Shown here piece by piece: positions 4,182 to 37,495 of a DNA stretch of 64,000 nt (position 1 is the stretch's first letter; every line of letters begins with the position of its first letter). The DNA lies in contig JAZSPQ010000005.1 of assembly GCA_045537485.1 (NCBI GenBank), positions 45,810 to 109,809 of the forward strand, read 5' to 3'. Origin of the DNA: Acutalibacteraceae bacterium. Its GTDB lineage: Bacteria > Bacillota > Clostridia > Oscillospirales > Acutalibacteraceae. The notes beneath the pieces were generated by a model that was not told the origin of the DNA, searched no databases, and saw only the letters and a program-made list of their open reading frames with translations. A program made the position numbers and the translations under genes.

Positions 4182-5603
4182 GTGAAGCGCTCAATTAAGC
4201 GTAGGTGGATGAAAAACATATTATTAACAATCATTGTGGTACTTCTGATTTGCTCGTCAATTATTTTGTTTACGGTATATAACAGGTATCACAATACTGT
4301 TGAGCAAACCATCAGAGCTCGTATCACCAGATCGGTTGACACTTTCTTTTTACCGTACAGTACAGCAGATGAGGAAACCTTTGCAATATGTGCGGCGGAG
4401 TTTGTTGATACCTTTATGTATAAGGATATAATGGAGGTTTGGGTTCTCGACAAAAACGGTAATATGATTGTGTCCTCAAGCGGATTCAGCGAAGAAAACG
4501 AGGATGTATATGACGATTATCTTGAGGCTCTTTATTCGGAAAACAAAATCGGCTCAGCTCTTACAACTCTTGAATCAGGTGAACACGTTACCGCCGTAAC
4601 TTACATTCTGAGAGATGAGAACGAGGAGCCCTACGGCGCTTTGAGATATATGATTTCAATGCAGGACATTGACAAGCAGTTTTTACTTATAACAATTCTC
4701 GTAATTATAATCCTTATTATGGTAATACTTATTTTCGCAATGTCAGGTGTATATTTTATCGCTTCTATAGTAAATCCGCTGCAGAGAATAAATCTTATAA
4801 CCAAGGAAATTGCGAAAGGAAACTTTGAGGTGCGAATTGAATCGGAAAACGATGACGAAATAGGTGAGCTTGCTTCGTCGATAAATGATATGGCTCTCAG
4901 GTTGAGTGAAATCGACGAAATGAAAAATGAGTTTATTTCAACGGTATCTCATGAAATCCGCACGCCGCTGACGTCGATTAAAGGCTGGGGTGAAACCTTA
5001 ATCAACGTCGGTGAAAACAATGAATTGACACAAAAAGGCTTAGGCATTATTGTTGATGAAACTACAAGACTTTCAACTATGGTTGAAGAGCTTCTTGATT
5101 TTTCGAGAATTCAGAACGGTAAATTGACGGTAAACAAGGAAAAATTAGATATTGTTTCGGCGGTTGAGCTGACTTATTCGATTTACAAACAAAAATCCGA
5201 AAGCGACAATTTGGAATTTGCTATGAATTGCAAACAACCAAGGATATTCGTTTATGCGGACCGTGATAAAATACGTCAGGTACTGATAAATATTCTTGAC
5301 AATGCCTTTAAATATACATCCGAGGGCGGAAAAATTGAATTGTCTCTTGAAAAATATAAGAAGCATGCAAAAATCACAGTCACGGACAGTGGCTGCGGAA
5401 TTGACGAAAAAGATCTGTTGCATGTAAAGGAAAAGTTTTACAAAGCAAATAACACTGTCAGAGGCACAGGGATAGGACTTGCTGTGGCGGATGAAATTGT
5501 CCGAATGCATGACGGTGAATTAAATATAAAAAGCGAGACAGGTAAAGGAACGAGTGTTGAAGTTTACTTACCCTTGTATACAAAGGAGTCAGATTATGAA
5601 TAA
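4182..5603 (+). CDS. sensor histidine kinase (2 TM, extracytoplasmic domain, HAMP, HisKA, HATPase_c)
   Basis: GTG start with an AAGGAGG SD. H-box SHEIRTPLTSI, N box DNAFKYT, G boxes DSGCGI and GTGIGL. Confidence 0.9.
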   Translation: MKRSIKRRWMKNILLTIIVVLLICSSIILFTVYNRYHNTVEQTIRARITRSVDTFFLPYSTADEETFAICAAEFVDTFMYKDIMEVWVLDKNGNMIVSSSGFSEENEDVYDDYLEALYSENKIGSALTTLESGEHVTAVTYILRDENEEPYGALRYMISMQDIDKQFLLITILVIIILIMVILIFAMSGVYFIASIVNPLQRINLITKEIAKGNFEVRIESENDDEIGELASSINDMALRLSEIDEMKNEFISTVSHEIRTPLTSIKGWGETLINVGENNELTQKGLGIIVDETTRLSTMVEELLDFSRIQNGKLTVNKEKLDIVSAVELTYSIYKQKSESDNLEFAMNCKQPRIFVYADRDKIRQVLINILDNAFKYTSEGGKIELSLEKYKKHAKITVTDSGCGIDEKDLLHVKEKFYKANNTVRGTGIGLAVADEIVRMHDGELNIKSETGKGTSVEVYLPLYTKESDYE

Positions 5604-6579
5604 AAAAGAAAAATCAGCTTGCAAGCTTTCAATCGGAGGTCAGGCCCTGATTGAAGGTATTATGATGCAGGGGCCGAATGGTGCAGCGGTATCGGTAAGA
5701 TGCCCTGACGGAAGTATTGATACAGAAATTATTGAAGTTAAGCATATCAAGGATAAAATTAAATTTTTGGGTTGGCCGCTCGTCAGAGGTATAGTCAATT
5801 ATATTGAATCAATGGTTTTCGGCTACAAATGCCTTATGATTTCAGCAGAAAAGTCAGGGCTTGAGGATATCGAGAACACTGATGAAAATTCATCAAAGCT
5901 TGATAAGTGGCTCACTGAGCATCTTAACAAGAAGGTTATGGGTGTAATAACGGGTATCGCTTCAATAATCGGTGTTTTGCTTGCATTTTTCCTATTTTTT
6001 TATCTTCCAACTGCTGCAGTTAATTTATTGAATAGGCTTTCAGGCGAGGTGCTGACAAACTACCGTGCTCTTTTTGAAGGAATAATCAGAATGGCGATCT
6101 TTGTCTTATACATCGCTCTGGTTTCTCTTATGAAAGACATTAAGCGTACTTTTATGTATCACGGGGCAGAACACAAGACAATATTCTGTTATGAGAACGG
6201 TCTAGAGCTTACTGTTGAGAATGTAAAAAAACAGTCGCGCTTTCATCCCAGATGCGGCACAAGCTTCATTTTTGTTATCATTATCATCAGTGTTATTATT
6301 TCATCTGTAATTTCAGTTACAACATCGCTTCATTCCAACAACATTCTTTGGATGGGTGTAAAACTGCTTATCCTTCCTCTTGTAACAGGCTTCAGCTATG
6401 AGTTCATTAAATATGCAGGCAGACATAATAATCTGTTCGTTAAAATACTTGCAGCACCGGGTCTCTGGATGCAGAGGCTTACAACAAAGGAACCTGACGA
6501 TCAGATGATAGAAGTTGCACTGGAGGCTTTCAAGGCAGTACTCCCTGGCGAAACGGGAGATGTGAAAGATGAAGCTTAA
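5596..6579 (+). CDS. DUF1385 domain membrane protein (commonly adjacent to prmC)
   Basis: Motifs GGQALIEGIMM and YHGAEHK, with several TM helices. ATG 5596 has an AAGGAG SD 8 nt upstream. Confidence 0.8.
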   Translation: MNKKEKSACKLSIGGQALIEGIMMQGPNGAAVSVRCPDGSIDTEIIEVKHIKDKIKFLGWPLVRGIVNYIESMVFGYKCLMISAEKSGLEDIENTDENSSKLDKWLTEHLNKKVMGVITGIASIIGVLLAFFLFFYLPTAAVNLLNRLSGEVLTNYRALFEGIIRMAIFVLYIALVSLMKDIKRTFMYHGAEHKTIFCYENGLELTVENVKKQSRFHPRCGTSFIFVIIIISVIISSVISVTTSLHSNNILWMGVKLLILPLVTGFSYEFIKYAGRHNNLFVKILAAPGLWMQRLTTKEPDDQMIEVALEAFKAVLPGETGDVKDEA

Positions 6580-7420
6580 CATTCTGTATAACACGGTACT
6601 CAGGCAGCTTGATGATAATTCAATAGAGAATTCTGTTTTTGAAGCGAAGGAGCTCATCAAGCATTTTTACAAGCTGTCGGAAAGTGATTTTCTGCTCAGA
6701 AGAAATGATGATTTCTCCGATGTGATATGTCAGGCATTGCAGACCGCTGTTGACAGAAGACTTAACGGCGAGCCGCTGCAGTATATAATCGGCGAATGGG
6801 ATTTTATGGGTTATACCTTCAGCGTCGGTGACGGTGTTCTTATCCCGAGGCCTGAAACAGAGCTTTTATGTGAGTTTGTAATTGAAAGTATACTTTCTTT
6901 GCAAAGTCCCGTTGTTTACGATTTATGTTCAGGGAGCGGTTGCATAGGGATATCTGTGAAAAAAGCAGTTCCTTCAGCAGAGGTTTATCTTGTGGAAAAA
7001 AGCGATCTCGCTTATAAATACCTTAAGAAAAACGTCATAAAGCTTTGCGGAGAAAATCAGGTTAACACTGTCAATGCCGATATTTTTAATTTTGATATGT
7101 TTAAAAACAATCAAAAAGCTGATGTTATCGTAAGTAATCCGCCATACATCAGAAGCAGTGAAATCCCCACACTGCAAGCAGAAGTACAGCAGGAACCGGT
7201 TATGGCTCTTGACGGGGGTGAGGACGGCCTTGAATTTTATCGGTTTATCATCACTGAATGGAGACAGCTTCTGAAGGATAACGGTTTTTTTGCTTTTGAA
7301 TGCGGTGAGGATCAAGCGGGGGACATCGCTCAAATTTTAGATAATTACGGATTTGACAGTTTTACACTAAAAGATTATAATAATATAGACAGAATCGTAA
7401 TCGGAAGGAGGAAATGCTGA
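6569..7420 (+). CDS. prmC: peptide chain release factor N5-glutamine methyltransferase
   Basis: SAM motif DLCSGSGCIG, catalytic NPPY, and the PLQYIIGEWDF motif. Confidence 0.9.
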   Translation: MKLNILYNTVLRQLDDNSIENSVFEAKELIKHFYKLSESDFLLRRNDDFSDVICQALQTAVDRRLNGEPLQYIIGEWDFMGYTFSVGDGVLIPRPETELLCEFVIESILSLQSPVVYDLCSGSGCIGISVKKAVPSAEVYLVEKSDLAYKYLKKNVIKLCGENQVNTVNADIFNFDMFKNNQKADVIVSNPPYIRSSEIPTLQAEVQQEPVMALDGGEDGLEFYRFIITEWRQLLKDNGFFAFECGEDQAGDIAQILDNYGFDSFTLKDYNNIDRIVIGRRKC

Positions 7421-8073
7421 TGCTTTTCGGTATTTCAATGGAAAAAATACTTGTGAGGCTTTTCATTGCTGTTTGCATATTGCCAATTCATGAATTCGCA
7501 CATGCTTATACTGCTCACAAACTTGGAGATGATACAGCAAGACTGTCGGAAAGAATGACCATCAATCCGCTTGCTCATATAGATCCTGTCGGAGCGTTAC
7601 TTATGATTTTTGCAGGTGTCGGTTATGCTAAAGCTGTACCTGTAAATATCAGAAACTTCAGAAAGAGAAAACAGTATATGGCTATAGTTTCACTTGCCGG
7701 TCCCGTTTCAAATTTAATTATGGCTTTAATCTTTATGCTTCTTTCCAATGCGACATATTATTTGAGCGGTACGCTGAATAACGCAATATACACAATATAT
7801 ACTTTGTTGATGTATGCAGCGTCCGTGAATATTTCACTTGCTGTATTTAATCTGATTCCCATACCGCCGTTGGACGGTTCAAGAATACTCAGTGTAATAA
7901 TTCCCGACAGGCAATATTACAAGATTATGCAGTATGAAAGGTACCTCATTCTCGTAATTCTTGTGCTTGCTTTTATCGGTGTTCTTTCCGGACCAATCAA
8001 TATAGTTACATCCTACATTCTTAATCTTTTTGATAAAATAACATCATTCCCGTTTATAATGATTTCACAATAA
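7420..8073 (+). CDS. site-2 protease (M50) family zinc metalloprotease
   Basis: HEFAHAY (HExxH) and NLIPIPPLDGSRIL motifs in a polytopic membrane protein. ATG 7420 lies 7 nt after GGAGGA. Confidence 0.8.
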   Translation: MLFGISMEKILVRLFIAVCILPIHEFAHAYTAHKLGDDTARLSERMTINPLAHIDPVGALLMIFAGVGYAKAVPVNIRNFRKRKQYMAIVSLAGPVSNLIMALIFMLLSNATYYLSGTLNNAIYTIYTLLMYAASVNISLAVFNLIPIPPLDGSRILSVIIPDRQYYKIMQYERYLILVILVLAFIGVLSGPINIVTSYILNLFDKITSFPFIMISQ

Positions 8074-8085
8074 CATAGGTGAATT

Positions 8086-8844
8086 ATGGAAAAAATACAG
8101 TATAAATTAGATGTGTTTGAAGGTCCTATGGATCTGCTTTTGCATCTGATAAGTAAACATAAACTGAATATTAATGACATTCCTATTTTTGAGCTTGTGG
8201 AGCAATATATTGACTATGTTCATCAAATGGAAGAGGCCGATATGGAAGTTGCCAGTGATTTTCTGGAAATGGCCGCAAGACTTGTTTATATAAAGTCGGT
8301 GTCACTCTTGCCTGTATACGAAGAAGCTGAGCAACTTAAAAAAGAGCTTACGGGTGAACTGCTTGAATATCAGGATTGCAAAATGATGGCTCAGAAAATT
8401 GCTCAGACAGCAAACGGATTCGATTATTTTTATCGCTCAACAATGCAGCTTGATGTGGATAAAAAATATGAACGTTTACATGAAAGCAATGAGCTTGTCG
8501 GACATTATCTTGAAGCTGTCGGCAGAGGTAAGAGGAAGCTTCCGCCACCCATAGAAGCTTTTACTGCTATCGTTACAAGAAAAATCGTATCCGTCGGTTC
8601 ACGTATCGCAGGGATTTTCTCTAAGCTCAGAAATAAATCCGTGCACCGCTTGGATGATTTTTTCTCAGATGCAGCATCACGTTCGGAAATGGTCGCAACT
8701 TTCCTTGCCATACTGGAGCTTATTAAGGCAAAAAAAATAGTTGCCGACGGTGACGGTGAAGATACTGTAGTCGGGCAAATAGGTGAAATTGAAAATATTG
8801 ATGAATTTATGATCAGTTCAGGTGGTGAAGAATATGATGAATGA
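8086..8844 (+). CDS. scpA: segregation and condensation protein A
   Basis: N-terminus FEGPMDLLLHLI..KLNINDIPI is typical of ScpA, and scpB follows. Confidence 0.9.
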   Translation: MEKIQYKLDVFEGPMDLLLHLISKHKLNINDIPIFELVEQYIDYVHQMEEADMEVASDFLEMAARLVYIKSVSLLPVYEEAEQLKKELTGELLEYQDCKMMAQKIAQTANGFDYFYRSTMQLDVDKKYERLHESNELVGHYLEAVGRGKRKLPPPIEAFTAIVTRKIVSVGSRIAGIFSKLRNKSVHRLDDFFSDAASRSEMVATFLAILELIKAKKIVADGDGEDTVVGQIGEIENIDEFMISSGGEEYDE

Positions 8845-29768: not shown

Positions 29769-30518
29769 ATGTTAGGAAAATTCGTAAAGGTACGTGTAAC
29801 ATCCCCAATGCATTCTTTTAACAACAGATTCGGCTTTAAATATAAGCTCAATTACGGCATAATTGACAGCTTTAAAAGCAACAAAAAATCTGTTCAGGGC
29901 GCCTATATTATGGGTATTAACCATCCTGTCAGAAATTTTGACGGCAGGGTAATTGCTGTCATAAAGAGACAGAGCTGCAGAGGAATGGCATGGGTAGTTG
30001 CACCTAAAAGTACAAGATTCATTGTAAACGATATTAAACAGGCTATTGAATTTGCCGAAGGCAGAAACAATTACAGCATAGAGTGCTTATATGAAAGCTC
30101 GTGCGGTGCAGTTATATTCAGAGTAGAAAACGGTTGCAACAAGTTTTTGCTGATAAGAAATAAGCGCAGTGCTCATTGGGGGTTCCCGAAGGGGCATATT
30201 GAGCCGGGTGAAACCGACGAAGATACTGCAATAAGAGAAGTTTTTGAGGAAACCGGACTTCGTGTACGAATAATTCCCGGATTTGTGAAAAAATCTGAGT
30301 ACACTATTCAGGGAAAGATTGAAAAGTCTGTTTCCATTTTCCTTGCTCAGACCGATGAATGTGATTATAAACTTCAGGAAGAAGAGATTGAAGAGTGCGG
30401 CTGGTTCTGCTATGACGAAGCACTTAACACTCTTAATTATGAAAACGATAAATATATTTTAAGCGAAGCTAAGAAATTTATTGAAGCAATTAATTCTTCG
30501 GGGGATAAACATGACTGA
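29769..30518 (+). CDS. NUDIX hydrolase with an N-terminal, apparently degenerate, pyrophosphatase-like domain of about 120 aa
   Basis: NUDIX box GFPKGHIEPGETDEDTAIREVFEETG. The N-terminal domain is discussed under findings. Confidence 0.85.
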   Translation: MLGKFVKVRVTSPMHSFNNRFGFKYKLNYGIIDSFKSNKKSVQGAYIMGINHPVRNFDGRVIAVIKRQSCRGMAWVVAPKSTRFIVNDIKQAIEFAEGRNNYSIECLYESSCGAVIFRVENGCNKFLLIRNKRSAHWGFPKGHIEPGETDEDTAIREVFEETGLRVRIIPGFVKKSEYTIQGKIEKSVSIFLAQTDECDYKLQEEEIEECGWFCYDEALNTLNYENDKYILSEAKKFIEAINSSGDKHD

Positions 30519-31014
30519 AACACTGGCGCAGTATTTTGTCGATAATTTTTCCGATAAGTTATCAGGTGAGTTGATAGCTTTTATCGTTTCATTGCTTCCT
30601 GTTCTTGAGCTCAGAGGCGGACTTATTGTTGCAAAGCTTTTAGAAGTGGATTTTTTAAAAGCGTTTCTTATATGCTTTATCGGAAATCTTCTGCCTATTC
30701 CTTTTATCTTAATTTTCATAAGAAAAATTTTTTCACTCTTAAAAAAGAACAGAAAAGTTGAGGAGCTTATCACAAAGCTGGAAGCTCGGTCCATACGTAA
30801 AGCCGATAGTGTTAAAAAGTACCGTTTGTGGGGATTGTTCATTTTAGTTGCAATTCCGCTTCCGGGTACGGGTGCGTGGACAGGAGCCCTTATTGCAGAT
30901 TTATTGGATATAAGAATCAAGCATTCTTTTCCCGTGATAGCCATAGGCGTATTTGTTGCAGGACTTATAATATCAGCTTTATCTTACGGCCTTTTCGGCT
31001 TGTTAGGATTCTAA
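30511..31014 (+). CDS. small multidrug export-like membrane protein (COG2426 / Sm_multidrug_ex)
   Basis: Motifs LELRGG and IPLPGTGAWTGALIADLL. ATG 30511 overlaps the NUDIX stop by 8 nt. Confidence 0.7.
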   Translation: MTETLAQYFVDNFSDKLSGELIAFIVSLLPVLELRGGLIVAKLLEVDFLKAFLICFIGNLLPIPFILIFIRKIFSLLKKNRKVEELITKLEARSIRKADSVKKYRLWGLFILVAIPLPGTGAWTGALIADLLDIRIKHSFPVIAIGVFVAGLIISALSYGLFGLLGF

Positions 31015-31074
31015 AAAAAGCTACAAGAGCTATGTTTTATTTTTAAATATGCTGTTTCGGTGCAATTATTAAAG

Positions 31075-31117
31075 AAAGCACAGAAGTCCGTTGAGGATTT
31101 TCTGTGCTTTTTGTTTA
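31075..31117. terminator. bidirectional intrinsic terminator between convergent genes
   Basis: AAAGCACAGAA (31075-31085) pairs with TTCTGTGCTTT (31100-31110). TTTTGTTT follows on the plus strand and a T-rich run follows on the minus strand. Confidence 0.65.
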
Positions 31118-33001
31118 GTTAATAACACTTTCCCATGCTTCCATAGCAAGCAAAAGCTCCTCTTCAACCTTGGATATCTCAGTCTGCAATTCAGTAAGCT
31201 TGATATAGTCTGAAATGTTTTCCTCTTTGGCAATTTCATCATTAAGAAAAGCAAGCTTTTCCTCGAGGGTAGCAACGGCTTCTTCTGCTTTTTTTATCGC
31301 ACGCTCGCGTTTTGCTTTCTCTTTACCGGGGGTTGTATAGTTTTTCTTTTGTTTTACGGGAGCAGGTGAGTCAGCTTTATTTTCAATCGCTTTGCTTTTA
31401 GCTGTTTTTTCTTCATACTCATCGTATCCGTATTCATACCAGGTAGTTATACCTTCATTAAATGAAATCAAGTGATGAGCAACTTTTTTAATAAAATATC
31501 TGTCGTGAGAAACAAAGAGCAAAGTGCCGGTATAATCCGAAAGCATATTTTCAAGCGCTTCTTTTCCTAAAATATCCATATGATTTGTAGGTTCATCAAG
31601 AATAAGGAAATTCGGTTTCTTTTTTAAAAGCTTGCATAGCGCAAGTCGTACCTTTTCGCCGCCTGAAAGCATATCTACCGTCTTAAAAACATCGTCTCCC
31701 GTAAACAAAAATGCGCCTAATGAGCTTCTGGCTTCAAACGGTGTTATTCTCGGGAATTCATCCATAAAGTCGTCTAAAACAGTCTTAGAGCTCGTATATT
31801 GAGCCATTTGCTGATCAAAATATCCGATTTTTACATTGTTTCCAATAATAAAAGTACCGCCAAGAGAGGGGACAGCACCCACCAATGTTTTAAGAAGTGT
31901 AGATTTTCCTTGACCGTTTCCACCCAAGATGCCCACATGTTGACCCCGTAAAATCGTAAATGATACTTGCGAAAGCACTTTTTCGTAGCCGATTTTTAAG
32001 TTATTAACATACAAAACATCTTTTGCAGACCTGATATCGGGTTCAAAATCTGCATGAAACTGCTTTGAGTCATATTTTTCAGGTGCTTCGATAAGCTCCA
32101 TTCGCTCAAGGTACTTTATCTTGGACTGGGCCATTGCAGCTTTATTGGCCTTATATCTGAATTTTTCGATTAAATCCTTAATCCGAGCAATTTCTTCTTG
32201 CTGTGCTTCATAAGCTTTTGCTTGCTGTTCTCTCAACAGCTTTTTCTGCTCGGAGAATTGACTGTAGTTTCCGATATATTTATTTGTTTTACCGTGTTCG
32301 ATTTCATAAATCACGCTTACTGTTTTATCAAGAAACATTCGGTCGTGGGATACGATAACTACAGCTTTTTTATATGTAGAAAGGTACTCCTCAAGCCACG
32401 AGACAGCATCAACATCAAGATGATTTGTGGGCTCGTCAAGTAAAAGAAGGTCCGGTTTTGAAAGCAGTAATTTCAGAAACGCTATTTTTGTTCTTTGGCC
32501 TCCCGAGAAATTTGACAAAGGCTTACACTTATCTTCGTTTGTAAAGCCAAAACGCTTAAGAGCAGCTTCGTATTCTTTTTCAAAATAGAAACCGCCCAAA
32601 TTGGTGAAGCTGTCAAGTAGGGTAGTGTATCTGTTGATTTTATCTTCAGATGAATCATTTTCAAGTTCAGACTGAAGAGTCTCAAGCTGACACTTCATCG
32701 CAATTATCTCGCTGTATGCACCTCTGATTTCTTCTATCATTGTTTGTGAGTTATCTTTAAAAGCCATCTGACTCATTGTTCCGATAATCGGTTTACCGGA
32801 AACAATGTGCTGACTGTTTAATTCCGGATTATCCTTCGAAATCTGCAGTTCACCGCTGAGAAGTCTGAGTAAGGTTGTTTTGCCGCAACCGTTTCTACCA
32901 ACTATTCCGACTTTACTTTCGGTATTAATTTCAATGTTGACTTTTTTTAATACAGGTTCACCGGACAAGTCTACGACTCCGTTTTGTATTCTTATTTGCA
33001 T
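31115..33001 (-). CDS. ABC-F family ATPase (two ABC domains, no TM domain, C-terminal coiled coil)
   Basis: Walker A GRNGCGKTT and GGNGQGKST, signatures LSGGQ and LSGGE, Walker B LLLLDEPTNHLD and FLILDEPTNHMD. Start set at Met15 (MQIRIQNG). Confidence 0.9.
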   Translation of the reverse strand: MQIRIQNGVVDLSGEPVLKKVNIEINTESKVGIVGRNGCGKTTLLRLLSGELQISKDNPELNSQHIVSGKPIIGTMSQMAFKDNSQTMIEEIRGAYSEIIAMKCQLETLQSELENDSSEDKINRYTTLLDSFTNLGGFYFEKEYEAALKRFGFTNEDKCKPLSNFSGGQRTKIAFLKLLLSKPDLLLLDEPTNHLDVDAVSWLEEYLSTYKKAVVIVSHDRMFLDKTVSVIYEIEHGKTNKYIGNYSQFSEQKKLLREQQAKAYEAQQEEIARIKDLIEKFRYKANKAAMAQSKIKYLERMELIEAPEKYDSKQFHADFEPDIRSAKDVLYVNNLKIGYEKVLSQVSFTILRGQHVGILGGNGQGKSTLLKTLVGAVPSLGGTFIIGNNVKIGYFDQQMAQYTSSKTVLDDFMDEFPRITPFEARSSLGAFLFTGDDVFKTVDMLSGGEKVRLALCKLLKKKPNFLILDEPTNHMDILGKEALENMLSDYTGTLLFVSHDRYFIKKVAHHLISFNEGITTWYEYGYDEYEEKTAKSKAIENKADSPAPVKQKKNYTTPGKEKAKRERAIKKAEEAVATLEEKLAFLNDEIAKEENISDYIKLTELQTEISKVEEELLLAMEAWESVIN

Positions 33002-33098
33002 CAGAAAGTACATCCTTATATATTGATGCAAATATTTTATCATATTTGCTGACGTTAAGCAACAGTTTTTAAACTTAAAATAGAAATGAGGTGATCAT

Positions 33099-33311
33099 GT
33101 GAGTGAAACGGAACGTTTAATAAATTTAATTTACGGTTTATTGTTTTCTGAAGAAACTCGTCTTGAGTTTGATGTATATAATTCATTTGAGATTTTGAAT
33201 AAGAATTCAAAGGATTCATGTTACATAGCTAAATATTTAGCGACAGTTCAACGCTATGAGGATTTTAAAATCTTTGAAAGAAAGGTGATAGAAGTGTTAC
33301 GGCTGTTTTAG
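33099..33311 (+). CDS. hypothetical 70-aa protein
   Basis: GTG start with a GAGGTG SD 5 nt upstream. Soluble and partly acidic. No family recognised. Confidence 0.5.
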   Translation: MSETERLINLIYGLLFSEETRLEFDVYNSFEILNKNSKDSCYIAKYLATVQRYEDFKIFERKVIEVLRLF

Positions 33312-33334
33312 TTATGTTGTACAATTTTCTATCA

Positions 33335-33350
33335 TCTACTATACAAAATA
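33335..33350 (+). repeat. left inverted repeat TCTACTATACAAAATA
   Basis: Its reverse complement recurs at 33759-33774, 15/16 identical and 13/13 in the core ACTATACAAAATA. Confidence 0.8.
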
Positions 33351-33352
33351 GA

Positions 33353-33367
33353 TATTTTATATAGTAG
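33353..33367 (-). repeat. second arm of the left palindrome, TATTTTATATAGTAG
   Basis: Pairs 14/15 with 33336-33350 across a 2-nt gap. It is a direct repeat (13/15) of the right copy at 33759-33773. Confidence 0.8.
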
Positions 33368-33742
33368 AGGGGAGCAGATTATTGTTTTAGTCTACTTGCT
33401 ATGTAACATAATAAATGCATATATCCGGATTAGTCGATTTTTATGTAACGTCTAACCTGTCTATATTATACGATATATATGATCAAACAAGTTTAATTCA
33501 TGTATGATTATTGTTTTTTAACAGAATGATTTTTTATCTTTGATTCTCTTTGATGGATTTTATTTTTATGATCTGAGCATCGTTGTATAAAAATCTATCA
33601 AATGGAATTTAATCGATAATTAAACATATAAATCTATAATTGCTCAAAAATTACAAACTATAGATGTTCTATTTTAGTTTTTCGATGCAATTATAATACA
33701 TTATACAAATTTATATATTTTAATCAAAATTCAGAAAAACGC

Positions 33743-33771
33743 TTGACCGAACGTAAAATATTTTGTATAGT
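33743..33771 (+). promoter_or_regulatory. sigma-A type promoter of the recombinase gene, with its -10 inside the right repeat
   Basis: TTGACC (33743-33748), a 17-nt spacer, then TATAGT (33766-33771). Confidence 0.5.
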
Positions 33772-33774
33772 TGA
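33759..33774 (-). repeat. right inverted repeat (plus strand TATTTTGTATAGTTGA)
   Basis: Reverse complement of the left repeat. It ends 5 bp before ATG 33779. Confidence 0.8.
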
Positions 33775-33802
33775 ATAAATGAATATTAGGAGCGTGATTA
33801 CT

Positions 33803-34783
33803 GTGCAAGAAAATGTGAACAAAGCGTTGCTGCCGCCGCTAGTCAATGAATTTATTGTTGATAAAATAGTTACAAAGGACTGCAGACCCTCTACACTAAA
33901 TGAATATACTATCGATTTGTGGCTGTTTTTCAGATTTTTGGTCAGCAAAGAAAGAGGGCTCTCCTCCCCTGCTGAGCTTGAAAAAAATTTTGACTTATCA
34001 TACATTGATGCTGATTTTATCAGCAAAATCACTTTAAAAGATGTTAACAGTTTCCTTGCTTATTGTAGCTCTGAAAGAAGCAACTCACCAACAACAAGAG
34101 CGAGAAAAGCATCGTCTATCAGAGGATTTTTCAAGTATATTGCCGACAAAATGGCTTATATAGATCGGAACCCGGTTACACAGCTACAGGTTTCATCTTC
34201 AAAAAAAAGGCTTCCAAAGTACCTGACTCTGGAAGAAAGCAAGAAATTACTTCAAAGTGTTGACGGAGACAATAAAATCAGGGATTATTGCATATTAACC
34301 TTGTTTTTAAACTGCGGACTTAGACTTGCCGAGCTTGTAAGTCTTAATATTCCCGACATTGACTTTAACGAAGAAAAAATGATAGTGACGGGTAAAGGTA
34401 ATAAACAGCGAGTTATTTATCTGAACAAGGCGTGCATTGATTCACTTAATGACTATCTTGCTGTGCGCCCACACGATCAGCTTAAAGGTGACGACAGAGA
34501 TGCTCTTTTTATTAGCAGATTAAATAAGCGTATCGGAAGGCAGGCTGTACAACTTATGGTTTATCATTATCTTGATAAAATAGGCCTTAACGGACAGCAT
34601 TATTCCGTCCATAAGCTTCGTCATACAGCTGCAACACTTATGTACCAACACGGAAAAGCCGATCTTCTTCAAATAAAAGAGGTTCTCGGCCATGAAAATC
34701 TTTCTACAACTGAAATATATACACATGTTGAAGATGAATTAGTGCGTCAGGCAGTTAAAAACAACCCGCTATCAAAAGAATAA
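33803..34783 (+). CDS. tyrosine site-specific recombinase (XerC/XerD-like)
   Basis: Catalytic signature R (NCGLRLAEL), HKLRHTAAT (HxxR) and LGHENLSTTEIYTHV (H...Y). GTG 33803 has AGGAG 10 nt upstream. The in-frame ATG at 33779 has no SD. Confidence 0.85.
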   Translation: MQENVNKALLPPLVNEFIVDKIVTKDCRPSTLNEYTIDLWLFFRFLVSKERGLSSPAELEKNFDLSYIDADFISKITLKDVNSFLAYCSSERSNSPTTRARKASSIRGFFKYIADKMAYIDRNPVTQLQVSSSKKRLPKYLTLEESKKLLQSVDGDNKIRDYCILTLFLNCGLRLAELVSLNIPDIDFNEEKMIVTGKGNKQRVIYLNKACIDSLNDYLAVRPHDQLKGDDRDALFISRLNKRIGRQAVQLMVYHYLDKIGLNGQHYSVHKLRHTAATLMYQHGKADLLQIKEVLGHENLSTTEIYTHVEDELVRQAVKNNPLSKE

Positions 34784-35404
34784 TTAAAATGCAAATAAAT
34801 CTGAAAACATGCTTGTCGTAAGTAACTCAACTGTTGAGCTGATTAGTAAAATAATAAGAACTGCAACTGTTTTCACTGCTATGTTTTTCGGTTCAAAATT
34901 AAATTCTTTTGATCTCTTGGTTACTGTTTTAATAATTGAACTGCAACAGTTTATCAAAAGAAGTATTCCGAGAATAAGAAAAAATTTGCCCGGTAAAAGT
35001 ACCAATAAACAATATTCAATACCCTTGAGTTCATATACCGAATAAATGTATGTAATACAAGTGCTAAGCCCCAAAACCTTTATAAAGCTTAAGGTATAAA
35101 TAAATACATCGCCGATTACACTTGTTGAAAACAGCAGCATTAAAAAGAAATACGGCAATCCTTCCAAAAGCAAGCCTGAAAACATTTCTGGTTTGCTTTT
35201 TTTTATAAAACTCTGTGTGTAAAAATTAAAGCTTTCGGACAGATGCACATCAATCTGACTCTTTGCTATAATATAAAGGAGTACACCACTCAATGCTGCG
35301 ACGGACAGTATAGCTGTTATAATAAGAAGATTTTTGTTAAAAGGTAAGCTTTTTTCTTTTGGTTTAAATGTCCTTTTCGGTATTATCACTGCATTTATCT
35401 TCAA
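34784..35404 (-). CDS. spoIIM: stage II sporulation protein M-like membrane protein
   Basis: About 200 aa with 5-6 TM helices. It neighbours a Xer-type recombinase, as spoIIM neighbours ripX in Bacillus. The call rests on size, topology and context only. Confidence 0.5.
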   Translation of the reverse strand: MKINAVIIPKRTFKPKEKSLPFNKNLLIITAILSVAALSGVLLYIIAKSQIDVHLSESFNFYTQSFIKKSKPEMFSGLLLEGLPYFFLMLLFSTSVIGDVFIYTLSFIKVLGLSTCITYIYSVYELKGIEYCLLVLLPGKFFLILGILLLINCCSSIIKTVTKRSKEFNFEPKNIAVKTVAVLIILLISSTVELLTTSMFSDLFAF

Positions 35405-35415
35405 ATCGCTCTCCC

Positions 35416-35841
35416 CTACCTCTTTCTCTTATTTTTTATCCTTGTATTTACTGCTGTAATTCCGCCTAAGGCTGACATAACAAGAAACACTGCGAGCAAC
35501 ACAAAAAGTCTATAATCAAAAGCAAAAGAATTAAGAATAAGCGAAGTCAATATGAATATGATACAAATAGGAGAGTTATATAATAAGCCTAAAAGCATGC
35601 CTTTTTTTCTGAAACGCAAACCGGTAAAATATGCTGAGACAAAGTTTGCTGCAGCTAAAAGCACTGCTATTATTGCAAAATTCGTATAAACGTCAATGTC
35701 AGCTGCATAAAAAATAACGCACACAGCCATCACTGCAATTAAGTGAATAAAAACTATTATTGTCTCATGAAGGATGATTCCTTTAATTAATGAATCTGAC
35801 TGTTTATTTTTTGTTTTATTTTTGTTTGAAGATTTAACCAT
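35416..35841 (-). CDS. small polytopic membrane protein (TIGR04086/YrzE-like)
   Basis: Four TM helices with basic termini, positioned after yajC. ATG 35841 is preferred over GTG 35850 because GAGGAG lies 9 nt upstream. Confidence 0.5.
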   Translation of the reverse strand: MVKSSNKNKTKNKQSDSLIKGIILHETIIVFIHLIAVMAVCVIFYAADIDVYTNFAIIAVLLAAANFVSAYFTGLRFRKKGMLLGLLYNSPICIIFILTSLILNSFAFDYRLFVLLAVFLVMSALGGITAVNTRIKNKRKR

Positions 35842-35883
35842 AAAAAGCACTCCTCACATCATCTGTTAAATGATATGAGGAGC
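35842..35883 (-). terminator. intrinsic terminator/attenuator between yajC and the next gene
   Basis: The minus strand reads GCTCCTCATATCAT, loop TTAACAG, ATGATGTGAGGAGTGC, TTTTT, ATG. The SD of the downstream gene lies in the 3' arm. Confidence 0.6.
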
Positions 35884-35888
35884 TTAAA

Positions 35889-36290
35889 TCAATTATTCTT
35901 TTCCCAGTCGGGTTTTTCTTTGGACTTGCCGGACTTCTTTGCTTCGGCTTTTTCAGCTTTAGCCTTATCTGCAGCCTCTTTGGCTGCTGCTCTCTGAGCT
36001 GCAAGTCTTTCGTTAGCGCTATTGTTCTGCTGAACTGCCCAACGGGTGATAGTCATTCTGTTTCTGTCTGCGCCGGTTTCAATTACAAGAGTTTCGTCCT
36101 TTACTGTAACAATTCTTCCGCAGATTCCGCCGATTGTTGTGATTTCATCGCCGACCTCAACAGCATTACGCATTTCCTGCTCCTGCTGCTGTCTCTTCTT
36201 CTGAGGACGGATTGAAGTGAAGTACATAAGCGCAAACATTGCGACAATCAAAATTAAAAATGTTGGATCCATCATTTTATTTACCTCCAT
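35889..36290 (-). CDS. yajC: preprotein translocase subunit YajC with a Lys/Ala-rich C-terminal extension
   Basis: TM helix followed by VGDEITTIGGICGRIVTVKDETLVIE. Confidence 0.85.
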   Translation of the reverse strand: MEVNKMMDPTFLILIVAMFALMYFTSIRPQKKRQQQEQEMRNAVEVGDEITTIGGICGRIVTVKDETLVIETGADRNRMTITRWAVQQNNSANERLAAQRAAAKEAADKAKAEKAEAKKSGKSKEKPDWEKNN

Positions 36291-36364
36291 TATTTAAACA
36301 TTGTCAAGAATTATAGCATATAAAAGAACATATTTCAAGTAATTTTAAATATTTTACAGTTTAG

Positions 36365-37495
36365 TTATATTCTTGTATCTAAAAGCTCTACATATTCATT
36401 TTTAAAGCTTTCAAAAGTATCATTATCAATAGCTTCTCTGATCTTCTCCATAAGATTGTTATAAAAATAAAGATTATGAATTACACAAAGGCGCATTGCA
36501 AGTATTTCTTTACACTTTATAAGGTGTCTTATATAAGATTTTGAAAAATTCCTGCAAGTGGGGCAGTCACATTTTTCGTCTATGGGAGATGGGTCCTTTT
36601 CATACTTTGCATTATTGATATTTATGATACCCTTCCACGTATTCAGGTGACCGTGACGGGCATTTCTGCTCGGCATTACGCAGTCAAAAAGATCTACTCC
36701 CCTGCTTACGCCTTCAATTATATTTCCCGGAGTGCCGACTCCCATAAGATATCTCGGCTTATCCTCAGGCATATAAGGCTCAACAGCAGAAATGATGCGG
36801 TACATATCTTCCTTAGGCTCACCTACGGCGAGTCCGCCAATCGCATAGCCGTCAAGGTCAAGTTCGGCAATTTCTTTCATATTTTCAATTCTTAAATCAT
36901 CAAAGGTACAGCCCTGATTTATGCCGAAAAGAAGCTGGTTTTTATTTATGGTTTCAGGCAGAGAATTCAGTCTGTCCATTTCTGCTTTGCATCGCTTTAA
37001 CCACCTTACAGTTCTTGCGCAGGAGTCCTTTGCGTATTCGTATTTAGCGGGATTTTCAACGCATTCATCAAATGCCATTGCTATTGTGGAGCCTAAATTT
37101 GACTGAATCTGCATACTTTCCTCAGGTCCCATAAATATTCTTCTTCCGTCAACATGAGAGGCAAAGGTGACACCCTCTTCGCTGATTTTTCTCAGTCCGG
37201 CAAGCGAAAACACCTGAAATCCGCCGCTGTCTGTCAGTATAGGTCTGTCCCAACGGGTGAACTTATGAAGTCCGCCCATTTCAGAAACAAGCTTATCGCC
37301 CGGCCGAACGTGTAAATGATAAGTGTTCGAAAGCATAACCTGACATCTGATTTCTTTTAAATCAAGAGCAGAAAGACCGCCTTTAATAGCTCCGCAGGTT
37401 GCAACATTCATAAACGCCGGCGTCTGTACGGTTCCGTGAACGGTCTGAAACTCACACCGTCTCGCTTTATCGTTTGTTTTAATAATCTTTAACAT
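36365..37495 (-). CDS. tgt: tRNA-guanosine(34) transglycosylase
   Basis: Motifs LTDSGGFQVFS and DCVMPSRNARHG, with zinc site CDCPTC...H. Confidence 0.95.
   Translation of the reverse strand: MLKIIKTNDKARRCEFQTVHGTVQTPAFMNVATCGAIKGGLSALDLKEIRCQVMLSNTYHLHVRPGDKLVSEMGGLHKFTRWDRPILTDSGGFQVFSLAGLRKISEEGVTFASHVDGRRIFMGPEESMQIQSNLGSTIAMAFDECVENPAKYEYAKDSCARTVRWLKRCKAEMDRLNSLPETINKNQLLFGINQGCTFDDLRIENMKEIAELDLDGYAIGGLAVGEPKEDMYRIISAVEPYMPEDKPRYLMGVGTPGNIIEGVSRGVDLFDCVMPSRNARHGHLNTWKGIININNAKYEKDPSPIDEKCDCPTCRNFSKSYIRHLIKCKEILAMRLCVIHNLYFYNNLMEKIREAIDNDTFESFKNEYVELLDTRI

Follow-up and report, generated by a model that had tools for sequence, protein, structure and literature searches.

In a stretch of 64,000 nucleotides from an Acutalibacteraceae bacterium (GenBank assembly GCA_045537485.1, contig JAZSPQ010000005.1, positions 45,810 to 109,809 of the forward strand; hereafter the window), a gene for a tyrosine recombinase of the Xer family (xer) is preceded by two short inverted repeats that enclose 408 bp of AT-rich, non-coding DNA. 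The initial annotation, made from the sequence of the window, had proposed this segment as a DNA switch that could invert or be excised. The comparison of related loci described here points to a different function. The left repeat is one arm of a near-palindromic site, here called PAL, and the best explanation of the whole, which we consider reasonably probable, is that PAL and the motif AGGGGAG at its side form the cognate dif-like site of the adjacent recombinase. The right repeat is a lone copy of an arm situated in the xer promoter, with its TATAGT serving as the -10 element, and not a second recombination site. The features concerned are the following (window coordinates; ORF, open reading frame).

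33336-33367, no strand assigned: PAL, the putative dif-like core site (13-bp arm, 6-bp spacer, 13-bp arm)
33336-33348, no strand assigned: left arm of PAL, CTACTATACAAAA; the left repeat of the initial annotation (33335-33350) is this arm
33349-33354, no strand assigned: 6-bp spacer of PAL, TAGATA
33355-33367, no strand assigned: right arm of PAL, TTTTATATAGTAG, 13 bp
33368-33374, plus strand: G-rich flank AGGGGAG on the constant side of PAL, with positions 65-98% conserved in 106 sites
33375-33742, no strand assigned: AT-rich non-coding body of the segment, from PAL to the xer promoter, 24% G+C and ORF-free
33743-33771, plus strand: predicted sigma-A-type xer promoter, with -35 TTGACC (33743-33748), a 17-nt spacer and -10 TATAGT (33766-33771)
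33761-33773, plus strand: lone third arm TTTTGTATAGTTG, within the right repeat (33759-33774) and containing the -10 hexamer
33803-34783, plus strand: xer, Xer-family tyrosine recombinase gene, 326 aa from GTG 33803, ribosome-binding site AGGAG at 33788-33792, alternative in-frame ATG at 33779

The description of the repeats given in the initial annotation held on recalculation. TCTACTATACAAAATA (33335-33350) and TATTTTGTATAGTTGA (33759-33774) are complementary at 15 of 16 positions, share an exact 13-mer core and lie 408 nt apart, and from the end of the right copy it is 5 nt to ATG 33779 and 29 nt to GTG 33803. The G+C content of the 408-nt segment (33351-33758), estimated earlier at about 24%, is 24.0%, as compared with 39.4% for the whole window, and the segment, which had been called ORF-free, contains no ORF of 40 aa or more, the sole overlap being a 102-aa ORF antisense to xer (33724-34032) at its right edge. 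Exact inverted matches of at least 13 nt arise in 2.2% of 1000 dinucleotide-preserving shuffles of the 467-bp intergenic region, in line with the few per cent first estimated, and at this rate the inverted repeat by itself is weak evidence and only suggestive. What marks the repeat as functional and not a product of chance is that the pair recurs in orthologous loci, in which the right copy is invariant while its flanks vary. The left copy is one half of a near-palindrome whose arms (33323-33350 and 33353-33380) are 79% complementary, and the second arm of this palindrome and the right copy are, as had been noted, direct repeats, 88% identical over 17 nt.

The site at the heart of this palindrome is widely conserved. 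Over 106 distinct xer-linked sites its consensus is nAATTATACAAAA-TnAATr-TTTTGTATAATTn-AGGGGAG, and the asymmetric spacer TnAATr is kept at 86-94% per position. The arms covary in such a way that the palindrome is preserved, e.g., CACTTGCACAAAA/TTTTGTGCAAGTG in locus L039, and likewise in L075, L068, L028 and L008. Of 81 species-level loci, 54 have PAL upstream of their xer ortholog, most of them lacking a third copy, and in a blind pattern scan of metagenome contigs, where hits were counted only if at least 2.5 kb was available on both sides, a xer homolog lies 21-768 bp from PAL in 22 of 29 hits. In the simplest and commonest order (L197, L231 and L094), a promoter whose -10 overlaps the left arm is followed by PAL, by AGGGGAG as the Shine-Dalgarno sequence and, ~8 nt further, by the start of xer. 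Across distant lineages, the unit of PAL and AGGGGAG is found in either orientation with respect to xer, AGGGGAG being retained also where it is oriented away from the gene; the 64-kb window holds one copy of PAL. Because it combines two arms, a conserved asymmetric 6-bp center and linkage to a tyrosine recombinase gene, PAL is read as a core recombination site, and it is very probably a site of Xer recombination or integration. The tie between the repeats and the adjacent gene proposed initially thus stands, the repeats now appearing as arms of a tyrosine recombinase site.

AGGGGAG was also considered as a polar motif of the kind of the FtsK-orienting polar sequences (KOPS) or the SpoIIIE recognition sequences (SRS). 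This was rejected, as its strand distribution in the window follows gene orientation, like that of a ribosome-binding site, and the copy at PAL would point away from the site.

The recombinase itself is of Xer type and lies outside the NCBIfam families XerC, XerD, XerS and XerA; the sequence of its presumed site differs as well. The protein scores 138 bits against Pfam PF00589, and all NCBIfam scores fall below the cut-offs (XerC, 211 vs. 335 bits; XerD, 198 vs. 330; XerS, 162 vs. 267; XerA, 190 vs. 220), while invertase models, whose cut-offs are near 220, give weak scores of 56 and 49 bits. Of the solved relatives, XerD of E. coli ranks first (E=3e-32), XerA structures are among the closest (93-102 bits), and XerH is more distant (69 bits). 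The residues R174, K198, H270, R273, H297 and Y306, which correspond to the usual R/K/HxxR/H/Y catalytic set, are invariant in 26 homologs, in agreement with the intact recombinase signature recognized earlier. Thousands of homologs exist, and one database protein is 100% identical to the window Xer and 326 aa long, a length that fits GTG 33803 as the start. Homologs at 47-81% identity are abundant in metagenome-assembled genomes (MAGs) of Acutalibacteraceae, Ruminococcaceae and other Clostridia, in at least 597 GTDB species. No contig matched the exact sequence of the window recombinase from either of its two possible starts, and the comparison of orientations thus rests on related loci. A housekeeping Xer function, which the initial annotation had entered as a caveat, is the reading that the evidence favors.

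The mobile DNA seen at the locus consists of filamentous prophages of 5-7 kb, which lie on the far side of the palindrome from the 408-bp segment. In L094, a 6.9-kb element with a G+C content of 0.42 (~0.50 in the flanks), encoding a Zot-like ATPase and a G2P-type rolling-circle replication protein (Rep), is located between TAATTATACAAAA-TTATTA-TTGTGTCCTCATA and a full PAL, TAATTATACAAAA-TTATTA-TTTTGTATAATTT, which is followed by AGGGGAG and xer; no integrase gene was found in this element. Empty-site contigs for L094 are L197, L231 and L153, in which the left gene is 96-98% and xer 99.4% identical and PAL alone stands between them. A second pair is formed by L245 (occupied) and L246 (empty), which have the gene order of the window and an identical Xer (P0006, 78% identical to the window Xer). 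Between the ABC-F gene and PAL, L245 carries a 6-kb element with genes for a helix-turn-helix regulator, a 359-aa protein, Zot and a RepB-type Rep, besides small ORFs and one ORF of 70 aa. The element is bounded by the junctions TCAACTATACAAAA-TAAATA-AATTGTTCAAAAA and GAACTATACAAAA-TAAATA-TTTTGTTTGGTAG, with AACTATACAAAATAAATA duplicated at both, and the site of L246 is intact. In L191, a 5.2-kb RepB element is enclosed by a full PAL and a half-site, both with the spacer CATTTA, and rolling-circle Rep genes abut the xer-distal side of PAL in L002, L008 (together with Zot) and L207. The sequence duplicated at the prophage junctions is one arm plus the spacer. The precise location of these integrase-less, inovirus-like prophages, together with the empty sites of the same species, argues for PAL as a dif-like Xer site. 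That two unrelated Rep families use this same site indicates that a host enzyme performs the integration, and with the lack of an integrase and the arm-plus-spacer duplication we infer integration by the host Xer, in the manner of the integrative mobile elements exploiting Xer (IMEX).

A remnant of such a prophage is retained in the window itself.

33099-33311, plus strand: orf70, inovirus-like prophage relic, 24 bp from PAL and in the same orientation; in such prophages it comes last, beside attR

Its product is, by eye, ~70-75% identical to that of the 70-aa ORF that follows the RepB-type gene in the L243, L244 and L245 prophages and 24% identical (E=5e-4) to the product of its counterpart in L002; neither Pfam nor PHROG yielded a family for it. 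The gene is missing from the empty site L246, and L115-L117 retain only the final codons of an orf70-type ORF. With orf70 as a right-end relic beside it, PAL of the window is an attR-type junction, and everything else of the prophage has been lost, as far as the ABC-F gene. Occupied (L245) and empty (L246) contigs do not differ in the AT-rich segment or in the right copy, which identifies PAL and not the right copy as the point of integration. Overlapping its arm copy, the L094 element brings a TTGACT-N17-TATAAT promoter of its own (7990-8060 and 1060-1125), for which reason xer of L094 would be driven by a phage-supplied promoter that replaces the host TTGCAT-N17-TATAAT.

The second half of the argument concerns the right repeat. 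The architecture of the window was compared with 11 loci (L001, L002, L115, L116, L117, L239/L245 and L240/L246 from one species, L242, L243, L244 and the partial locus L241, which shows the right end only), a set of ~10 related Acutalibacteraceae-type species whose Xer proteins are 69-81% identical to that of the window. All share one layout, in which the palindrome is followed by AGGGG, 315-456 bp of AT-rich DNA, TTGAC, 12-14 nt and TTTTGTATAGTTG, ~42-70 nt before xer. The AT-rich segment is poorly alignable among them save for one block, TTGAC is kept at the same distance in 10 of the 11 loci, and the lone arm is invariant at 13 of 13 positions in all of them while the flanking columns are ~40-60% identical. 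In L001 and L002 the right copy, read in reverse complement, is identical to the left arm (16/16). The xer promoter of the window has 10 of 12 matches in a promoter scan. No partner arm accompanies the lone arm, the 13 nt at the partner position being unrelated to an arm. The 6 nt beside the lone arm are AAAATA in the window, GAAATA in L115 and L116, and TAAAAA in L001; AAAATA agrees with the PAL spacer TAGATA at 4/6 positions in direct and 3/6 in inverted alignment, and the match of the adjacent 6 bp to the local PAL spacer is 3-4/6 in the window, L001, L002 and L115-L117. Lone arms also occur in distant lineages and track the local PAL arm variant. In L044, whose PAL arms are TAATTTCGCAAAA/TTTTGCGAAATAC, the lone arm, TTTTGCGAAATTA, complements the left arm exactly, does not resemble a -10 and precedes xer by 34 nt, and in L061 the lone arm TTTTGTATGAGTC lies directly downstream of a TTGACA-N17-TATAAT promoter. 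This tracking leads one to expect that the protein which reads PAL also binds at the xer promoter. In every locus type examined in detail, transcription of xer begins at or crosses an arm.

An isolated 15-nt arm copy, TCAACTATACAAAAT, is present at 1455-1469 of L003, at a distance of 690 bp from the palindrome and within the coding sequence of a DUF6873 gene, as a mirror image of the arrangement in the window. It is not a conserved coding motif of DUF6873, since other DUF6873 genes lack it at the same position.

Gene strands converge in the window: 28 consecutive plus-strand genes (11-26917) give way to a mixed zone (27-43 kb), in which PAL is situated, and this in turn to 16 consecutive minus-strand genes (43238-63990). 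Such convergence is the pattern of a replication terminus in Firmicutes. The GC skew passes from ~+0.13 to ~-0.07, with its sign change between about 26 and 44 kb, and a skew that is positive on the left and negative on the right within 4 kb is seen in 36 of 53 relative loci, where it is confounded by conserved gene order. The window likely spans the replication terminus. It has no convincing match to canonical dif (…ATAA-N6-TTATGTnAAnT) and no second recombinase gene was found in it; matches to TTATGTAAAC in relatives, tried as dif candidates, are direct repeats in a promoter region and were discarded. The balance tilts slightly toward PAL being the chromosome dimer resolution site.

In the mechanism that would unite these observations, two Xer monomers occupy the two 13-bp arms of PAL and exchange strands across the 6-bp spacer, the normal substrate presumably being a pair of PAL copies on a chromosome dimer in a terminus-like region. 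Inovirus-like phages devoid of an integrase would hijack this reaction, as comparison of the relatives suggests, by means of an attP composed of one good arm and the same spacer, and would insert at PAL on the side away from xer, orf70 being what the window retains of such an event. In simpler relatives PAL itself separates the -10 of xer from its ribosome-binding site, a layout that the lone arm would replace in the window. Xer bound to the lone arm, possibly looping to PAL-bound Xer ~400 bp off, would occlude the promoter and repress xer, which would restore negative autoregulation where ~400 bp separates PAL from the gene; autoregulation, the likeliest function of the lone arm, is given a chance just short of even. 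The 408-bp segment would then be a fixed spacer between an integration hot-spot and the xer promoter and not an invertible or excisable cassette, and as a side effect phage integration at PAL would no longer detach xer from its promoter. Tentatively, this can be extended to a general proposal, in which Oscillospirales-type gut Clostridia possess a self-contained dif/Xer module, with a symmetric 13+6+13 site and a G-rich flank in the promoter or leader of its own xer, that serves as an integration site for Gram-positive inoviruses, and in which the clade of the window has shifted the site by ~400 bp and kept the sensing of Xer levels through a lone arm on a new promoter. Control of xer and of phage integration may also come from a synapse between PAL and the lone arm, either as a regulatory loop or through a rare inversion.

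For the 408-bp segment itself, neither inversion nor excision is supported, since no flipped locus exists among those compared, the right end is a lone arm and the bases at the presumptive crossover are mismatched. A phase-variable switch, as proposed in the initial annotation, would require a recombination by Xer between the left arm and the inverted right copy that flips the segment; the -35 (33743-33748) would be separated from the -10, turning xer off, and would come to lie beside the left arm and direct leftward transcription. Such a flip would be regulatory, with the -35 inside the segment and the -10 inside the repeat, the recombinase gene is adjacent, and the inverted repeat is a conserved one, with a perfect match (16/16) in L001 and L002. 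The orthologous loci, whose comparison had been suggested for both conserved repeats and flipped versions, provided the former in 11 loci and the latter in none: the inverted state, i.e., the left arm followed by the reverse-complemented -35, is absent from all 11, including L245 and L246, two assemblies from a single species. Moreover, the right end is a half-site without a partner arm, tyrosine recombinases need homology in the crossover spacer, and the spacer-equivalent bases match the PAL spacer at only 3/6 positions when inverted; PAL is also equally conserved in many lineages that have no second copy. The occurrence of the PAL unit in both orientations across lineages and the mirror-image lone arm of L003, which could be counted for a switch, indicate inversions around the site on an evolutionary time scale. 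We give little credence to a phase-variable switch, and the locus is a cautionary case in which a conserved inverted repeat beside a recombinase gene is not necessarily an inverton. Excision, the other fate envisaged initially, is not supported either. The segment shows no presence/absence polymorphism: it is present in all 11 loci, in the occupied L245 and the empty L246 alike, and the spacers match at 4/6. The segment could instead be a decayed or miniature IMEX-type element between an attL-like full site and an attR-like half-site, possibly still excisable by Xer. The direct repeat of the second PAL arm and the right copy (88% over 17 nt), the order L-c-R ... x-c'-R, which is that expected from integration of an attP with a degenerate arm and is seen in the prophages of L094, L191 and L245, and the length (315-456 bp) and fast sequence divergence of the segment all fit such an origin. 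It is nevertheless unlikely, because the segment is found at empty and occupied sites throughout the clade, its polarity is opposite to that of the observed prophages, whose degenerate site is xer-distal, the spacers agree at 4/6 only, and the segment is gene-free and holds the -35 of xer, which excision would silence.

A transcription factor other than the recombinase could also use PAL and the lone arm as operators and would then control xer and a small number of further genes, recombination being incidental or carried out by phage functions. PAL does overlap the -10/+1 region of promoters in many loci, the lone arm is positioned on a -10, and PAL-like sites without xer exist near SpoU and CoaX genes and in tailed phages. 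Yet the recombinase gene is the only one consistently linked to PAL, and 13-bp arms around a conserved asymmetric 6-bp spacer are a geometry of the recombinase type and not of the operator type. The prophage junctions furthermore put the crossover within or beside the spacer, two unrelated Rep families share the integration site, and the position of PAL with respect to promoters varies (on the -10, upstream of the -35 or 400 bp off), all of which makes the operator explanation improbable. Pure coincidence, in which the right copy would be an extended -10 element (TTTTG-TATAGT) that happens to resemble an AT-rich arm, is the least probable explanation of all and is given hardly any weight: 2.2% of local shuffles produce a 13-mer inverted match and the arm does contain a -10-like hexamer preceded by TG, but the 13/13 invariance in 11 loci reaches beyond the hexamer, the 16/16 identity in L001 and L002 includes outer flank bases, the lone arm of L044, TTTTGCGAAATTA, copies a variant arm that is not -10-like, and that of L061 is downstream of the -10.

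Palindromes with PAL-type arms are also found away from xer. A second class, with the spacer TGCAAA and a G-rich flank and without xer nearby, is present at L168 9394, L171 8027, L183 2405, L123 6936 and L234 3398; the combination of the same arms with another center suggests a heterospecific second site. Same-arm palindromes with diverse spacers occur in tailed-phage contigs (L081-L114, from IMG/VR), e.g., L093 8210, L087 5387, L088 5510, L095 10622 and L114 10025, where they lie between the small and large terminase genes, beside portal genes, after an endolysin gene or near a serine recombinase gene. As a general explanation, attP sites for the xer-linked PAL were rejected for them, the spacers being diverse and the positions heterogeneous. 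In L075 (3846-3924), two palindrome-like sites are arranged in tandem 48 bp apart, the upstream one being degenerate, which may be the scar of a past integration and excision.

Several points weigh against the assignment of PAL to Xer and to dimer resolution. Binding of Xer at PAL is deduced from linkage and phage integration, and autoregulation is a pure inference. Given the PAL-like palindromes with other spacers in tailed-phage contigs, PAL may be read by a DNA-binding factor other than Xer, and the TGCAAA-spacer class adjoins genes for a SpoU-type methylase, CoaX or GNAT proteins. The segment with its lone arm resembles an attL/attR pair in topology (L-c-R ... x-c'-R). A second Xer paralog, 27-32% identical, is encoded in an operon with spoIIM, convergent with the xer studied here, in L013, L018, L040, L041, L048 and L069, and in these relatives the PAL system may not be the sole one or may not be the one that resolves dimers. 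Finally, the change in GC skew follows the coding strand and the skew at third codon positions (GC3) gives no independent replication signal, so that the terminus assignment rests on the convergence of gene strands.

Among known systems, a close parallel is XerS/difSL of Streptococci and Lactococci, in which, as here, the site lies immediately upstream of the recombinase gene; the two form a single module at the terminus (PMC1914069), which is also the likely position of PAL. A location of the site within or next to the xerS promoter has been speculated to allow autoregulation and to guard against insertions (Le Bourgeois et al., 2007; PMC1914069), and the speculated difSL-type order (promoter, PAL, Shine-Dalgarno sequence, xer) is actually seen here in L197, L231 and L094. 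The two systems differ in that the window protein is not XerS (162 vs. 267 bits), and in that difSL is an atypical 31-bp site (PMC1914069) whereas PAL is a near-perfect 13+6+13 palindrome of different sequence. In the clade of the window, moreover, the site lies ~400 bp away with a lone arm on a new promoter. XerL/dif of Legionellales was found through the integration of LME-1 (Nicholson et al., 2022; PMC9765430); there too, a non-canonical dif/Xer system was exposed by site-specific integration of an element with a site mimic, forming a modified downstream site (PMC9765430). The phylum, recombinase family and site sequence are different, and XerL was confirmed genetically while the present case relies on comparative genomics.

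Elements of the IMEX type that use XerCD/dif include CTX-phi and TLC-phi of Vibrio cholerae, filamentous phages that lack an integrase and integrate at the host Xer site. Their attP has one good and one degenerate arm, so that integration leaves a full and a defective site, as is also seen in L094, L191 and L245; the hosts here are Gram-positive gut Clostridia (Oscillospirales-type MAGs), the site and the type of recombinase are others, and integration by the host Xer is deduced. XerH/difH of Helicobacter and Campylobacter and archaeal XerA/dif use a single recombinase and nearly symmetric sites with a 6-bp central region. PAL shares this near-symmetric layout while its arm sequences are unrelated, and the window protein is closer to XerA structures (93-102 bits) than to XerH (69 bits) and remains below the NCBIfam XerA cut-off (190 vs. 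220). As in fimS, acted upon by FimB/FimE, and in the RecV switches of Clostridioides difficile, short inverted repeats surround a non-coding segment that bears a promoter next to a recombinase gene. This resemblance to an inverton is superficial, as the locus has, unlike those switches, one complete site only, no alternative orientation in related loci and weak scores against invertase models.

Literature searches that covered Clostridia, Ruminococcaceae, Oscillospiraceae and the arm sequence returned no description of this site or system, and for inoviruses of gut Clostridia direct repeats at prophage ends have been reported with no mechanism (PMC10061712). If the proposed reading is true, a dimer resolution site, or at least an Xer integration site, would be defined for a large group of mostly uncultured gut Clostridia, which canonical dif and the XerC/XerD models do not fit. 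The inovirus-like prophages of Gram-positive gut bacteria would gain an attachment site and a host factor, and natural examples would become available for testing autoregulation and insertion shielding by a dif site in the xer promoter, as suggested for difSL (PMC1914069). For the scanning of genomes, the lesson is that a conserved inverted repeat near a recombinase gene need not mean an inverton.

Two minor features of the region complete the description.

33317-33345, plus strand: predicted weak promoter-like site leading into PAL (TTGTAC, 17 nt, TATACA), with its -10 inside the left arm
33547-33558 and 33593-33604, no strand assigned: conserved 12-bp inverted repeat inside the segment, consensus CATTTAATAGAAA ... 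TTTCTATCAAATG

Stronger promoters occupy the place equivalent to the former in other loci, namely TTGCAT-N17-TATAAT in L197/L231, TTGACA-N17-TATAAT in L242 and TTGACA-N17-TAcAAT in L040, L059, L062 and L069. The 12-bp inverted repeat is present in the 11 related loci and duplicated in L117. It was rejected as an RNA helix, RNAalifold giving no structure and paired cells amounting to 82.6% as against 83.2% in shuffles; as covariation of the helix does not exceed that of the shuffled controls, the repeat (33547-33604) is probably a protein-binding site at the DNA level. An Rfam scan of 30000-37000 (E up to 1) returned no relevant match, and no intrinsic terminators were found in the region.

The genes upstream of xer encode, in order, a HAD hydrolase, a NUDIX protein, a small multidrug-export protein and an ABC-F protein, followed by orf70 and the 467-bp AT-rich intergenic region; downstream lie spoIIM, a DUF3792 gene, yajC and tgt, all on the minus strand. 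The ABC-F gene (31115-33043, minus strand), the 5' region of which abuts the prophage relic, is of the ribosomal-protection type (473 bits against NF000355, cut-off 380; 665 vs. 1450 for the OptrA model) and may be of the antibiotic-resistance type. In the relatives with a second Xer paralog, the operon of spoIIM and this paralog (about 5000-8500 in those loci) is preceded by several direct repeats of TTATGTAAA(C). In L004 (3934-3966), and also in L207 and L230, a perfect palindrome resembling a Rex box, CTTTGTTTTGTGAAAC-GTTTCACAAAACAAAG or TGTGAAAC..GTTTCACA, lies between the promoter and the start of xer, which hints at redox control of xer by Rex in those lineages.

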